52,523 nt of DNA from a virus (IMGVR_UViG_2537561965_000009), one strand, 5' to 3'. Positions 4,522 to 50,049 are shown, counted from the stretch's first letter. The notes: generated from the letters alone by a model not told the origin. Made by a program: numbers and translations.

Positions 4522-4579
4522 AATTCACTTTAAAAAGGGCGGCAGAGCAGTCACGGAGTAAAACTGATACCGCCAAACG
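4522..4579 (-). ncRNA. dicF: DicF small regulatory RNA
   Basis: Minus-strand sequence UUUCUGGUGACGUUUGGCGGUAUCAGUUUUACUCCGUGACUGCUCUGCCGCCC followed by a U-run matches the DicF sRNA as I recall it; located between ydfC-like and dicB-like genes as in Qin. Confidence 0.6.
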
Positions 4580-4927
4580 TCACCAGAAAATTGATAACAG
4601 AGGGCGTTGCAGCGGAGTTGTCACTTAAGCGTATGGTCAACCTGACAACCCGGTGTCCTCAACGGAGGAAGGAATAACCCCGCCATACTTACCGCCGCGC
4701 CATTTCGCGGAGTGCCACAACCGGAAGCGCACGGTCGAACTAAATTTAACGACACCGTACAGAGAGACCAATTTCGCCGTGCGCTTTCGCTTTATGCCCT
4801 GACTTTTCAGGGACATATCCTTTCAGTAAACTGTCAGTGCCGGATGTTCACCCGTGTCCGGCGCACGCACTCCACCTGACCCGTGGAGAACTCCTTAATT
4901 ACCAACCTTAGCTTCGTTGGTTAGCTA

Positions 4928-12610: not shown

Positions 12611-12790
12611 ATGAAAAACGCATTGCAGTTTTTGTTTGTTGCGTTCTGGTTGTTCGTATCATGTATGCCCATCATCTTCACAGCAAGGTATATGGAAAAA
12701 GTTGATGTTTTGATATTAATATTTGGATATATAAATGCCCTTTTTTTAGGGGTGTTCATGGCGGTCATGTGCATTGAATACTGGCGGTAA
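12611..12790 (+). CDS. small two-helix membrane protein (moron candidate)
   Basis: 59-aa hydrophobic product MKNALQFLFVAFWLFVSCMPIIF... with strong AGGAGG SD at ideal spacing; lies in an AT-rich islet. Confidence 0.45.
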   Translation: MKNALQFLFVAFWLFVSCMPIIFTARYMEKVDVLILIFGYINALFLGVFMAVMCIEYWR

Positions 12791-12935
12791 ATACAGCGAA
12801 CGCCATTGGTTTAGTTGGATATTTACTGTGCCGGACAAAAACGGTTTGCGGGGAAATCTTAGTTAAGTAGAATGACTGCGGGTGCTTGAGGCTATCTGTC
12901 TCAGGCATGAACACCAAAAGGCAGATAGAGAAAAG

Positions 12936-13000
12936 CCCCAGTTAACATTACGCGTCCTGCAAGACGCTTAACATTAATCTGAGGCCATATCTATGCTCTA
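12936..13000 (-). ncRNA. sok: candidate Sok antisense RNA
   Basis: Minus-strand promoter-like TTGCCT (rc of 13031-13036) and TAACCT (rc of 13007-13012) with 17-bp spacer, positioned like the sok promoter of hok/sok loci; extent is an estimate. Confidence 0.35.
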
Positions 13001-13205
13001 CACACGTAGGTTAGCCTCTTACGTGCCGAAAGGCAAGGAGAAGCAGGCTATGAAGCAGCAAAAGGCGATGCTAATCGCCCTGATCGTCATCTGTTTAACC
13101 GTCATAGTGACGGCACTGGTAACGAGGAAAGACCTCTGCGAGGTACGAATCCGAACCGGCCAGACGGAGGTCGCTGTCTTCACAGCTTACGAACCTGAGG
13201 AGTAA
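12993..13205 (+). CDS. mok: mok-like leader reading frame of the hok locus
   Basis: ORF starting upstream of hok and running to the same stop (here in frame with hok); the 5' leader matches the conserved hok mRNA pattern GCTTGAGGC...AGCCTCTTAC...AAGGAGAAG. Confidence 0.4.
   Translation: MLYTRRLASYVPKGKEKQAMKQQKAMLIALIVICLTVIVTALVTRKDLCEVRIRTGQTEVAVFTAYEPEE
13050..13205 (+). CDS. hok: Hok/Gef-family type I toxin
   Basis: 51-aa product MKQQKAMLIALIVICLTVIVTALVTRKDLCEVRIRTGQTEVAVFTAYEPEE has the Hok signature; AGGAG SD at 13036-13040. Confidence 0.85.
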   Translation: MKQQKAMLIALIVICLTVIVTALVTRKDLCEVRIRTGQTEVAVFTAYEPEE

Positions 13206-13273
13206 GAGACCAGGCGGGGGAGAATCCCTCGCCACCTCTGATGTGTCAGGCATCCTCAACGCACCCGCACTTA

Positions 13274-13299
13274 ACCCGCTTCGGCGGGTTTTGTTTTTT
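13274..13299 (+). terminator. rho-independent terminator of the hok transcript
   Basis: ACCCGC-TTCG-GCGGGT hairpin followed by a T-rich run; an upstream 3' element CCTCAACGCACCC is complementary to the 5' GGGTGCTTGAGG (fold-back pairing). Confidence 0.6.
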
Positions 13300-13371
13300 C
13301 CTGGCATTCTGGTTTACAATTCGCACGTCAGCCTGAACACCTGACACCTGCTGCGCCAGCAGAGAAAACAG

Positions 13372-14704: not shown

Positions 14705-15070
14705 ATGACTGAACGCATAGAATTTGTTTTGCCTTACCCGCCAACGGTGAACACTTACTGGCGACGTCGTGGCAGCACATATTTTGTATCAAAAGCCGGT
14801 GAGCGTTATCGCCGTGATGTGGCGCTTATTGTTCGCCAGCAGCGGCTGAAATTAAACCTGTCCGGAAGGCTGGCGATAAAGATTATTGCAGAGCCACCGG
14901 ATAAACGTCGTCGTGACCTGGACAATATCCTGAAAGCACCACTGGATGCGCTGACGCATGCCGGACTTCTCATAGACGACGAGCAGTTTGATGAAATCAA
15001 TATTGTGCGCGGTCAGCGCGTTCCTGGGGGGCGGCTGGGCGTGAAGATTTACAAAATTGAGAGTGAGTGA
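14705..15070 (+). CDS. rusA: Holliday junction resolvase RusA
   Basis: 121-aa ORF MTERIEFVLPYPPTVNTYWRRRG... with the RusA signature; overlaps the upstream stop. Confidence 0.85.
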   Translation: MTERIEFVLPYPPTVNTYWRRRGSTYFVSKAGERYRRDVALIVRQQRLKLNLSGRLAIKIIAEPPDKRRRDLDNILKAPLDALTHAGLLIDDEQFDEINIVRGQRVPGGRLGVKIYKIESE

Positions 15071-15624
15071 TCGTAAATATGATATATCCGGAAATTACAG
15101 GCAAAAGCGGCGAGCATTTACGTCTAAAAACGCTGGAAGCCGTCTGGATCCAGGGGAAATTACGGATGTGGGGGCGTTGGTCGTACATAGGTGGTGGCAA
15201 ACCAGGAAATATGTTCAATCAGTTGCTGGCATCCAAAACACTTACAAAAACTGCGATCAATGAAGCTCTGCGCAGAATAAAAAAATCAGGGATTGATAAA
15301 ACTGAGCTGGAAGCGTTTTTGCGTGAGATGATCAACAGCAAGCAAAAGAGCGGGCTGGCTTATTGTACTGATGCCGAGGCGTTATGTATCGATCGGGTAA
15401 TTAGTAAAGTGTTGGCAGAGCATCCGGGATTGATTTGTATCCTCCGACAAAGATATGAAGGGCTGGGAATGAGCAAGCTGAAAATGGCAGAACAGTTAAA
15501 AAAGAATCACCCTGACTGGAGCCTGAAAACTTGTAGAAATCGCATTGATGTTTGGTTGGCGATGGCTGAAACCATGCTTTTCCTTCCAATGTGCGTGGCA
15601 CTTCGGTGCTTTTCTGATAACTGA
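15067..15624 (+). CDS. late-gene antiterminator Q-like protein
   Basis: 185-aa ORF (GTG 15067 or ATG 15079) directly after rusA and before the late/lysis region; contains an RMWGRWS motif reminiscent of Q-type antiterminators; the call is mainly positional. Confidence 0.5.
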   Translation: MIVNMIYPEITGKSGEHLRLKTLEAVWIQGKLRMWGRWSYIGGGKPGNMFNQLLASKTLTKTAINEALRRIKKSGIDKTELEAFLREMINSKQKSGLAYCTDAEALCIDRVISKVLAEHPGLICILRQRYEGLGMSKLKMAEQLKKNHPDWSLKTCRNRIDVWLAMAETMLFLPMCVALRCFSDN

Positions 15625-15713
15625 TGATAGAAGTGCATCAGCTATCAATCTTGTTGACGTTCATCAAGGTCTGGACAATACTTACGTTAAGTTCCAACAT
15701 ATGGAAGATAAGA

Positions 15714-16904
15714 ATGATATTTACACGATTGAGATTTATCAATTTGTACGCTTTTGAGGATGCAGAGCTTAACCTGTCCTATCCAAGGAAACCTGTAAAC
15801 ATGCCTCTTGATGGGGAGTTTTTGGCTGGACGGCCTAAATTTTACTATAAAAAAGTCTGTATCATAACGGGGGGAAATGCTTCAGGCAAGACGTCACTAG
15901 GGCGAATTCTTTGTGGAATTCAGGTGTTTCTAAGAACCAAAGAGTTGCGGAGTAATCTGCGAGTGAATAATAAAAATAATGATGCTTCGTTTGAAGTAGA
16001 CTTTGCTACGGAGGAACATTTTCATCATCGTTTGTATGTACGCTTTGCTACCAGTGAAGGCGGAGCGCACATAATCAAAGAAATTAAATATGGTTTTGTT
16101 CAAATAGCATTAAATGATTCTTGCTATAAAACCACAGAAAAACTGAATCAACTCTTTTCTGGAAGGGCCCCAGGAGATACAGAATATTTTTTTCAGGAAC
16201 TAGCTACTGATAGCGAACCAGTTGTATTGGAGTTTTTCAAGCAACTTAAGTTTTTTGGTGGATGGTACTATTTGTTGTCTGAAACTAAAGAAAGTACCAC
16301 TGCAATTTCAGGAATGAATAAAAATATTCTTGAAAGGATAATTCGCACTTTCGATTCAAGTATTATAGGAGTTACCGAGATGCTGGAGTCTGAAAGTGAC
16401 GGGGATGAAAATAAATCATCTGCGGTTTATCTGATTAAATTTAAAAACTCTGATTCTCTTGTCGTTACCAGTAAAGGTGAAATAATTAACTCAGACCGTC
16501 TTTCTCGAGGAACATACGAGGCAGTGACGGTAGCGCATTTTATAAGCGCTATTATCTCTGATTGTGAAAGACTAGGTAAGCAATCTCTAATACCATCAAT
16601 GACTTATTTTCTTGACGAGAAATTGGCTTATACACATTCAGAGTTAGAGCGTATGATTGTGGCGCTGATTATATCTAATTTGAAAGAAAATACTCAGTTT
16701 TTCTATACAACGCATAACATGGATATTTTTGAGTTGGATCTGCCTGTTCACTCGTTCATTTTTATTAAAAAAACGAAAGACTATTCGGAGTTTGTTGAAG
16801 CAAATTCAGTTGTTAAAAAAAATGACCGTAGCATGCGAAACGCTGTTGAGAGAGATGTCTTTGGTGTCTTACCTGACACATCATTAGTATCGGAGCTACT
16901 CTGA
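15714..16904 (+). CDS. ABC-type (AAA_21/SMC-like) ATPase, first gene of a candidate two-gene defence module
   Basis: 396 aa from ATG 15714; N-terminus MIFTRLRFINLYAFEDAELNL; Walker A ITGGNASGKTS; signature-like LSRGTYEAV; Walker B YFLDE; H-loop-like TTHN; strongly AT-rich codon usage unlike flanking phage genes; stop overlaps next start (TGATG). Confidence 0.7.
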   Translation: MIFTRLRFINLYAFEDAELNLSYPRKPVNMPLDGEFLAGRPKFYYKKVCIITGGNASGKTSLGRILCGIQVFLRTKELRSNLRVNNKNNDASFEVDFATEEHFHHRLYVRFATSEGGAHIIKEIKYGFVQIALNDSCYKTTEKLNQLFSGRAPGDTEYFFQELATDSEPVVLEFFKQLKFFGGWYYLLSETKESTTAISGMNKNILERIIRTFDSSIIGVTEMLESESDGDENKSSAVYLIKFKNSDSLVVTSKGEIINSDRLSRGTYEAVTVAHFISAIISDCERLGKQSLIPSMTYFLDEKLAYTHSELERMIVALIISNLKENTQFFYTTHNMDIFELDLPVHSFIFIKKTKDYSEFVEANSVVKKNDRSMRNAVERDVFGVLPDTSLVSELL

Positions 16905-17437
16905 TGGCGGGGTTGTCTAAAATAAGAATAATTTTTGTCGAAGGTGAAACAGAAAACTCTCTTTTTCAGAAGATGAAACAACAGAGAGTTATTGATGCCA
17001 AATCAATTGTAAAAAGAAACTTTTGGCAAGAGAGCATAAGAAATTATGCGATTACTATTCCGAAGGGAAGTGATATACTAATTGTCTTTGATAGTGATGA
17101 AGTGGAGCAATCTGCAAGATTCATTGAAAATGTAAAGTTCCTTAAAAACAGAGGGCATAAAGTTTATCTTTTGCAGCAGAAAAGAAATTTTGAGGAGGAG
17201 TTGGCCTGGTGTTGCGGAATTCCTGTAAAAAAACTAATTGCTGGGTTCTGTGCAAAAAAAACATCGGGTATAAATGATTTCAAGAGAGATTTTATTGCTT
17301 GTAACAATCAACTTTCAAAGTTACTGAAAATGGGCATGCAGGAAACTAAGTGGTTTACAAGAGATTTACATACTGTATTGGAGCCTGTTGCAAGTTTTAA
17401 GTCATCTTTTTCTAAACATTTCAGGTTAACAAGATGA
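16904..17437 (+). CDS. small TOPRIM-like protein (RloB/OLD/DUF4435-like), second gene of the candidate module
   Basis: 177-aa ORF; N-terminal IRIIFVEGETE and downstream ILIVFDSDEV give the Glu ... DxD arrangement of TOPRIM-type nuclease domains; translationally coupled to the ATPase gene. Confidence 0.6.
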   Translation: MAGLSKIRIIFVEGETENSLFQKMKQQRVIDAKSIVKRNFWQESIRNYAITIPKGSDILIVFDSDEVEQSARFIENVKFLKNRGHKVYLLQQKRNFEEELAWCCGIPVKKLIAGFCAKKTSGINDFKRDFIACNNQLSKLLKMGMQETKWFTRDLHTVLEPVASFKSSFSKHFRLTR

Positions 17438-19166: not shown

Positions 19167-19242
19167 GGCCCTTTAGCTCAGTGGTGAGAGCGAGCGACTC
19201 ATAATCGCCAGGTCGCTGGTTCAAATCCAGCAAGGGCCACCA
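19167..19242 (+). tRNA. ileZ: tRNA with CAU anticodon, ileX-like (tRNA-Ile2)
   Basis: 76-nt cloverleaf GGCCCTT...AAGGGCCACCA with anticodon loop CUCAUAA; closely resembles E. coli ileX as recalled; same position as ileZ in Stx-type phages. Confidence 0.8.
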
Positions 19243-19249
19243 TCACATA

Positions 19250-19326
19250 CCGCCATTAGCTCATCAGGAAAGAGCGCCAGCCTTCGAAGCTGGTTGCGCG
19301 GGGTTCAAGTCCCCGATGGCGGTCCA
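19250..19326 (+). tRNA. argN: tRNA-Arg (anticodon UCG)
   Basis: 77-nt cloverleaf with acceptor CCGCCAT/ATGGCGG, anticodon loop CUUCGAA, T-arm CGGGGTTCAAGTCCCCG and encoded CCA. Confidence 0.75.
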
Positions 19327-19339
19327 TTATCTGCATCAT

Positions 19340-19416
19340 GCGTTGTTAGCTCAGCCGGACAGAGCAATTGCCTTCTAAGCAATCGGTCACTGGTTCGAAT
19401 CCAGTACAACGCGCCA
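19340..19416 (+). tRNA. argO: tRNA-Arg (anticodon UCU)
   Basis: 77-nt cloverleaf GCGTTGT...ACAACGCGCCA with anticodon loop CUUCUAA. Confidence 0.8.
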
Positions 19417-19707
19417 CACTTATTTTCCCTGGCTCGCTTTTGTGGGCCTTTTTTTTAAATGTCTCACAATTTAGGCGGTTGACTGTTGTCTGGTTTGCGG
19501 GGAGTTTGTTAAAAGAAACTGGCATGGTGAATCCCCCTGTGCGGAGGGGCAATCAGCGAGTAGGTATATGGGATAATCGCGGATTCAGGTGCTGGTACTG
19601 AATTCACCGGGAGGCACCCGGCACCATGCAATGGCACATAGCGCCACTCTCCAGCCCCTCTCCGGAGGGGCTGTTTATATTGATTTTGTCAGATGTGAGT
19701 AAACTGC

Positions 19708-49468: not shown

Positions 49469-50049
49469 TGGCATTCAGAATGAGTGAACAACCACGGACC
49501 ATAAAAATTTATAATCTGCTGTCCGGAACTAATGAATTTATTGGTGAAGGTGATGCATATATTCCGCCTCATACAGGTCTGCCAGCAAACAGTACCGACA
49601 TTGCACCGCCAGATATTCCAGCTGGCTTCGTGGCTGTTTTCAACAGTGATGAGTCATCGTGGCATCTCGTTGAAGATCATCGGGGTAAAACGGTTTATGA
49701 CGTGGCTTCCGGCGACGCGTTATTTATTTCTGAACTCGGCTCATTACCGGAAAATGTCACCTGGTTATCCCCGGAAGGGGAGTTTCAGAAGTGGAACGGC
49801 ACAGCCTGGGTGAAAGATGCAGAAGCAGAAAAACTATTCCGGATCCGGGAGGCGGAAGAAACAAAAAACAGCCTGATGCAGGCAGCGAATGAGCATATTG
49901 CGCCACTTCAGGATGCTGTAGATCTGGAGATCGCAACGGAGGAAGAAACTTCGTTGCTGGAAGTCTGGAAAAAGTATCGGGTGTTGCTGAACCGTGTTAA
50001 TACAACAACTGCTCCGGATATTGAATGGCCAGTAGCACCTATAGGGTAA
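49468..50049 (+). CDS. tfa: tail fibre assembly protein Tfa
   Basis: 193-aa ORF, ATG overlapping the stf stop. Confidence 0.85.

Follow-up and report, generated by a model that had tools for sequence, protein, structure and literature searches.

The hok/mok/sok locus (parB) of plasmid R1 is plasmid-borne, has a role in post-segregational killing and carries mok in a different reading frame from hok. Its mRNA folds back through pairing between the 5' tac and the 3' fbi element, a ucb element covers the mok Shine-Dalgarno (SD) sequence, and the antisense RNA Sok acts at the mok start (PMC9841398). [quoted passage not shown] Among prophages, the hokW-mokW-sokW locus of 933W and Sp5 (VT2-Sakai) encodes a toxin, HokW, that is ~44% identical to R1 Hok (PMC8621323). 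Takada et al. [quoted passage not shown] Upon mitomycin C treatment sokW disappeared and HokW was produced in a RecA-dependent way, and deletion of the hokW-sokW locus halved phage release (PMC8621323). In E. coli K-12, mokC of the hokC(gef)-mokC-sokC locus is in frame with hokC and ends at a common stop codon (69 and 50 aa), with sokC overlapping the first 9 nt of mokC, and a further copy, hokD (relF), lies in the Qin cryptic prophage.

Here we analysed a 52,523-nt stretch of viral DNA (IMGVR_UViG_2537561965_000009; hereafter the window), in which positions 12880-13300 (+) very probably constitute an intact hokD-type hok/mok/sok type I toxin-antitoxin locus, flanked by the replication genes on one side and the DUF968-RusA-Q genes on the other in a Rac/Qin-like lambdoid E. 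coli prophage. The original prediction, made from the DNA alone, had claimed a complete hok/mok/sok locus in a nin-like region and had proposed Rfam models as a check. All the elements that it listed were found at or near the predicted positions, and nin-like is a fair term for a locus in the replication-to-Q region of a lambdoid prophage. The Rfam search was positive as well: RF01794 (sok/CssrC), which in spite of its name represents the sense-strand hok leader, matched positions 12880-13055 over the whole model (1-157) with 117.1 bits (gathering score 59; E 4.5e-26). This match indicates that the conserved hok mRNA leader is present upstream of hok, and it is to the same Rfam family as R1. 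The locus is preceded by a YdaT-family gene, an HTH replication-type gene, DUF977 and small phage ORFs, and followed by a PHROG-1212 ORF, a DUF968 protein, RusA and a Q-like antiterminator; strain ST648 is annotated with the same gene order around the locus. Close identity over the leader, the ORF and the 3' UTR, together with the lambdoid flanks, places the locus in the hokD/hokW prophage subgroup. Inspection of the sequence and the ORF list revealed no IS element or deletion touching the locus in the window. Two minus-strand ORFs (13019-13183 and 13095-13307) correspond to hok and its 3' UTR read as reverse complement and were treated as spurious.

Over positions 12840-13276, the window is 92.5% identical at the nucleotide level to the 933W/Sp5 locus, and 933W shares tac, ucb, the mok SD and ATG (in frame, 70 aa), the sok -35 and -10 hexamers, the hok SD and fbi. 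The homologous stretch of 933W is annotated with mokW, hokW and the SokW antisense RNA (GenBank AF125520), mokW and hokW ending at a common stop codon. The two loci differ in four residues at the Hok C-terminus (TAYEPEE in the window versus VDYESEK in 933W), in the sequence after fbi, where 933W diverges and is devoid of the terminator hairpin of the window, and in position, the 933W locus lying near the right genome end among hypothetical genes rather than between replication genes and Q. The DNA of the K-12 hokD locus is ~99% identical to the window over a stretch that starts at the hok SD and includes fbi and the terminator, and its downstream neighbourhood is of the same kind, with a small ORF, a DUF968 protein (YdfU) and Q. 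In contrast, ahead of the hok SD the K-12 locus has an unrelated sequence, which follows relBE, and the promoter, tac, ucb, the mok start and sok are missing. Since K-12 hokD becomes similar no earlier than the hok SD, it is a remnant, albeit with fbi retained, of the complete regulatory unit carried by the window. K-12 hokC has the leader architecture of the window, and HokC is ~82% identical to the window Hok. However, the hokC leader is 20 nt shorter because an extension of the ucb/Sok hairpin is missing, and there is no recognizable fbi in hokC, where IS186 adjoins.

The module is already known and very common. Megablast matches were obtained in 102 phage records, including 933W and VT2-Sakai (Sp5), with identities of 92.5-97%. 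A match was also present in 4956 of 5426 complete E. coli genomes, at 1-10 copies per genome (median 2); 59 records were at least 99% identical. The best E. coli matches, RefSeq hokD loci with 99.8% identity, are annotated as 'type I toxin-antitoxin system toxin HokD', and near-identical copies are annotated in thousands of genomes. Since hok/sok is a textbook type I system, the subgroup is annotated in 933W (AF125520) and a close relative was characterized in 2021, the locus carries little weight as a discovery, and the enrichment of hok in prophages is likewise already known. Its value lies in annotation: for loci of this kind the hokD CDS is the sole feature marked in RefSeq, and the window shows the complete unit that the K-12 remnant has lost.

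The hok toxin gene at 13050-13205 (+) encodes a product of 51 aa (MKQQKAMLIALIVICLTVIVTALVTRKDLCEVRIRTGQTEVAVFTAYEPEE) and is preceded by an SD sequence, GGAG, at 13037-13040 (+). The product matched the Pfam family HOK_GEF over profile positions 1-42 of 42 with 82.9 bits (cut-off 22; E 1.2e-23) and PHROG 251 'MokW-like host killing' with an E value of 2.8e-33. It is identical to K-12 HokD/RelF, and 47 of its 51 residues are identical in HokW. HokD is reported to be toxic in a preprint (10.1101/2025.08.07.668861), and by analogy the window Hok, the same protein, is probably toxic too. A small hairpin at 13183-13197 (+) presents CUUACGAAC, a candidate TadA-type A-to-I editing motif, in which the Tyr47 codon UAC (13188-13190) and the G of GAA together form UACG (13188-13191). 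Editing at this site would recode Tyr47 to Cys. In an alignment of 37 homologous loci, TTACGAA is invariant and lies in the loop of a 3-bp helix, two pairs of which covary (CG/UA 22:14 and GC/AU 22:13). The same preprint (10.1101/2025.08.07.668861) reports TadA editing of the UACG motif for hokB, and conservation of the motif, with the same Y-E codon pattern, in hokC/D/E.

The full-length hok (mok-hok) mRNA is predicted to extend for ~420 nt, from the tac element to the T-run of the terminator (12880-13300, +). The tac element GGGTGCTTGAGG (12880-12891, +) would form the 5' end of the mRNA, and the fbi element CCTCAACGCACCC lies at 13254-13266 (+). The reverse complement of fbi is GGGTGCGTTGAGG, which gives a tac/fbi pairing of 12 bp with one bulged base. 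In the minimum free energy (MFE) structure of RNA 12880-13297 (418 nt; -169.6 kcal/mol, z -6.46), whose stability was reached by 0 of 100 shuffles, tac is paired with 13254-13266. The proposal that a 5' element is complementary to a 3' element for fold-back inhibition was borne out both by this pairing and by compensatory changes across homologues. Within the leader, a hairpin at 12935-12985 (+) sequesters the mok SD, GAGG (12981-12984), against the ucb box GCCCC (12935-12939), and the reverse complement of this ucb/SD inverted repeat is the Sok terminator stem. The hairpin holds an extension of ~18-20 nt, GCGTCCTGCAAGACGC, which is present in the window, hokD/hokW and Kluyvera loci but missing in the hokC-type and Photorhabdus loci, and which is an insertion relative to the Rfam model. 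Downstream of the toxin gene, a 3' UTR stem-loop (GGCGGGGGAG...CCCTCGCC; 13213-13233, +) corresponds to helix 12 of the family consensus, with 97% of cells paired and 2 compensatory pairs; by analogy with R1 (PMC9841398), its role would be to shield the processed, translatable mRNA at the 3' end. A terminator scan placed the intrinsic terminator of the hok mRNA at 13273-13300 (+), with the stem AACCCGCTTCGGCGGGTT at 13273-13290 followed by the T-run TTGTTTTTTC. This terminator is common to the Rac-type phage and K-12 hokD.

To examine the fold across the family, 53 loci were taken from one-genome-per-species contigs, and 37 distinct full mRNAs from Escherichia, Shigella, Kluyvera, Pseudocitrobacter, Citrobacter, Pantoea and Photorhabdus were aligned. 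The RNAalifold consensus comprised 65 pairs. Standard pairs were formed in 98.2% of the consensus cells, compared with 37-46% in slid controls, in which partners were shifted by 1-3 columns, and 16 pairs showed compensatory changes, compared with 2-8 in these controls. None of 500 shuffles reached the observed percentage of paired cells, the pairs and cells with compensatory changes or the covariation score, while the count of further pair types was not above that of the shuffles (278/500). In helix 1 (tac/fbi), a compensatory change from U-A to C-G was present in 11 sequences and was seen in Photorhabdus/Pantoea, and direct inspection of Kluyvera showed that GAGG/CCTC had changed to GAGA/TCTC. 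In helix 3, formed by the ucb and mok SD segments (12935-12943 with 12977-12985), compensatory changes occurred in 3 of 7 pairs. The elements of the locus are present, intact, conserved and supported by covariation, and the Rfam and Pfam matches and the stability of the folds go well beyond what is expected by chance.

These data bear on the alternative that the locus is a relic, intact in structure but silent in function, in which Hok is never released naturally and the module has no prophage role. The K-12 copies are indeed disrupted, the hokD leader being replaced by relBE and IS186 adjoining hokC, ST648 has an IS3 element just upstream of the same locus, and studies cited in the preprint (10.1101/2025.08.07.668861) reported the chromosomal hokA, hokB and hokC to be without post-segregational killing or a rifampicin response. 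Moreover, the MFE structure of a 3'-truncated mRNA (12880-13240) does not contain the activating rearrangement expected from R1: the ucb/SD hairpin is kept, tac lies in a local hairpin and no tac/ucb stem is formed, but an energy minimum alone is not decisive. A silent relic nevertheless appears unlikely to us, since the regulatory elements are all intact and the compensatory changes across genera argue for continued selection, since the locus in the window is free of IS elements and deletions, and since hokW-sokW, with 92.5% identity, is active and has a measurable phenotype on induction (PMC8621323). The role that is most likely by analogy is toxin release after prophage induction, leading to faster lysis and phage release, as measured for hokW-sokW.

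On the minus strand, a Sok antisense RNA of ~71 nt is predicted at 12931-13001 (-), its coordinates being transferred from the annotated sokW of 933W. It is predicted to begin with an unpaired 5' tail, which is complementary to the SD and the start codon of mok, and to continue into a long hairpin followed by UUUU; a 74-nt minus-strand RNA (13001->12928) folds with -29.8 kcal/mol (z -5.08). It overlaps the first 9 nt of mok in the same geometry as K-12 sokC/mokC. The sok promoter is assigned to 13008-13036 (-), with the -35 hexamer TTGCCT (13036->13031), a 17-nt spacer and the -10 hexamer TAACCT (13013->13008). This TTGCCT/TAACCT pair, which had been predicted to drive a Sok-like RNA, was found where expected, and the putative antisense unit is placed as in sokW and sokC; both hexamers are identical in the window and 933W. 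The 'pro-less' mutant of hokW-sokW constructed by Takada et al. 2021 carries its change in TAGGTTA on the + strand, that is, in the TAACCT -10 (primers YO-421/422; PMC8621323), and mutating that -10 abolished sokW expression (PMC8621323). The putative hok promoter at 12846-12873 (+) combines a weak -35, either TTGCGG (12846-12851) or TTTGCG (12845-12850), with the -10 TAGAAT (12868-12873), the position of which suggests a transcript start at ~12880. This -10 precedes the start of the Rfam match by 6-7 nt and is kept in 933W and the Rac-type phage. Both the hok mRNA and Sok are probably transcribed. A generic sigma-70 scan of the region called neither the hok nor the sok promoter, because both are under its consensus threshold. 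Its sole call, a + strand site TTAACA-18-TATGCT (12968-12997), was at chance level (1 found, 1.0 expected) and was disregarded.

The segment 12984-13010, which comprises the mok start and the Sok 5' tail, is among the most variable parts of close relatives (loci L001-L051), with a mean column identity of 0.81-0.87 compared with 0.93-1.0 in most other bins. Comparable variability (0.81-0.85) is found in the loop of the 5' hairpin (12910-12924) and in the 3'-hairpin region (13217-13240). Copies inside one genome differ in the mok-start/Sok-tail segment, which may be a specificity determinant that limits cross-talk between them. The window itself differs from sokW at 6 of 21 positions in this segment, so that the results obtained with hokW-sokW transfer to the window by analogy only.

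The mok-like ORF of the window (12993-13205, +; 70 codons) is in frame with hok and shares its stop codon, and its start region is the target of the predicted Sok. Its ATG at 12993 is preceded at a distance of 8 nt by the SD sequence GAGG (12981-12984), and the ORF is homologous to the annotated mokW of 933W and arranged like mokC of K-12. The original prediction was right that mok is present in frame with hok, but its view of this as a variant arrangement did not hold, because mokC/hokC and mokW/hokW are arranged in the same way and the in-frame allele is the commonest in phages. In a survey of 80 IMG/VR phage loci that encode the identical Hok, an SD-preceded mok ATG at -57, giving an in-frame ORF of 70 aa, was found in 66. 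A further 11 loci (including L060 and L136) have the ATG at -56, so that a 19-codon upstream ORF is formed that stops at a UGA overlapping with the hok AUG (AUGA), and the leader is missing in the remaining 3/80. We therefore dismissed the idea that the in-frame mok is a frameshift artefact or a novelty specific to this locus. An ATG at -58, which opens a 68-codon out-of-frame ORF, was found both among the loci of the species set and in a phage record of the Rac type; across loci (L002, L008, L013, L014, L026, L028, L031, L032 and L034) the long out-of-frame ORF has 55-69 codons, with 68 in the closest relatives. The extra base of the Rac-type -58 alleles is a T inside the sok -35 (TTGCCT vs TTGACC); hokC-type loci also carry this T but have lost another base, which restores -57.

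The toxin is thus the same, or nearly so, in loci with any of the three mok phases, which indicates that the Mok peptide is probably not constrained. This natural variation fits the published view of R1, in which it is the act of translating mok that counts rather than the peptide (PMC9841398), and argues against a conserved function of the 70-aa protein. Correspondingly, we regarded a protein-level function for the Mok extension as unlikely, given that loci with the -56 and -58 alleles encode an identical or near-identical Hok. One such function would make the in-frame mok a dual start, whose 70-aa Mok-Hok isoform modulates the 51-aa toxin as the lambda S107/S105 antiholin/holin pair does. 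The -57 ATG with GAGG is the commonest allele and is found repeatedly, in Escherichia, Pseudocitrobacter, Citrobacter, Pantoea and Photorhabdus; HokW acts in lysis timing (PMC8621323), and the additional 19 residues (MLYTRRLASYVPKGKEKQA) are basic. However, the occurrence of mok in all three frames (-57, -56 and -58) with the same or near-same Hok speaks against a dual start, as does the R1 precedent (PMC9841398). The conservation seen in part of the extension is accounted for by the nucleic acid, because this part overlaps both the sok promoter and the hok SD. A functional dual start is accordingly very improbable. We would give just as little credence to the combined idea that a 70-aa isoform tunes the timing of the toxin after induction while the hypervariable Sok-tail segment serves as a specificity code against cross-regulation.

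How the elements would work together can be modelled on R1 hok/sok (PMC9841398) and hokW-sokW. A weak promoter would give rise to a stable mRNA of ~420 nt, in which the 5' tac is paired with the 3' fbi and the mok SD is locked against the upstream box. We propose that, owing to the tac/fbi closure and the locked mok SD, this full-length RNA is neither translated nor bound by Sok. Slow trimming from the 3' end, a step carried over by analogy, would remove fbi, allow the leader to refold and expose the mok start. As long as Sok is supplied, this short-lived RNA of ~71 nt from the TTGCCT/TAACCT promoter would pair with the mok start region and block translation, and the Sok/mRNA duplex would be cleaved, by RNase III in the R1 model. 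Once the supply of Sok stops, ribosomes that initiate at mok would pass through the hok start region, giving the 51-aa membrane toxin, the dependence of hok translation on mok translation being assumed to be the same as in R1; here the ribosomes that start at mok would also make the 70-aa extended form.

The biological role of such a release is suggested by analogy. The original prediction had named prophage maintenance or phage exclusion, and the annotation of 933W indeed proposes prophage maintenance, while R1 hok/sok stabilizes plasmids and reduces the plating of T4 (discussed in PMC8621323). In the preprint (10.1101/2025.08.07.668861), hok genes are reported to be ~4x enriched in prophages, and in the window a candidate defence gene encoding an AbiLi-like ATPase lies 2.4 kb downstream of the locus. 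Against this, the same preprint reports that hok is not enriched near defence systems (10.1101/2025.08.07.668861), and for hokW-sokW, the one close prophage homologue that has been tested directly, the effect on phage release was positive and no effect on maintenance or exclusion was reported (PMC8621323). We therefore regard maintenance or exclusion as possible but somewhat doubtful, and toxin release that promotes lysis and phage release as the best reading; the roles are not mutually exclusive.

Several further features of the window were observed. The candidate defence gene (15624-17437, +) directly follows the Q-like antiterminator (15067-15624) and encodes a 426-aa AAA_15 ATPase that matched PADLOC AbiLi with an E value of 9.6e-26, with weak matches also to AriA and mads_3. 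An overlapping ORF of 177 aa follows it and had no Pfam or PADLOC match; the two may together make up a defence moron of two genes resembling AbiL. A small, very hydrophobic ORF (12612-12790, +; MKNALQFLFVAFWLFVSCMPIIF...) lies in the AT-rich stretch that immediately precedes the hok promoter; no match to it was found in Pfam, PHROG or PADLOC, and its position is occupied by the IS3 element in ST648. Other Rfam matches above the gathering score were to the DicF sRNA, three tRNAs, the STnc100 sRNA and IS009, at 4537-4588 (-), 19167-19413 (+), 19493-19682 (+) and 49811-50009 (+), the three tRNAs lying downstream of a DNA methyltransferase-sized ORF. Matches to DicF, tRNAs, STnc100 and IS009 are typical of Qin/Rac-like and Stx-like lambdoid prophages.
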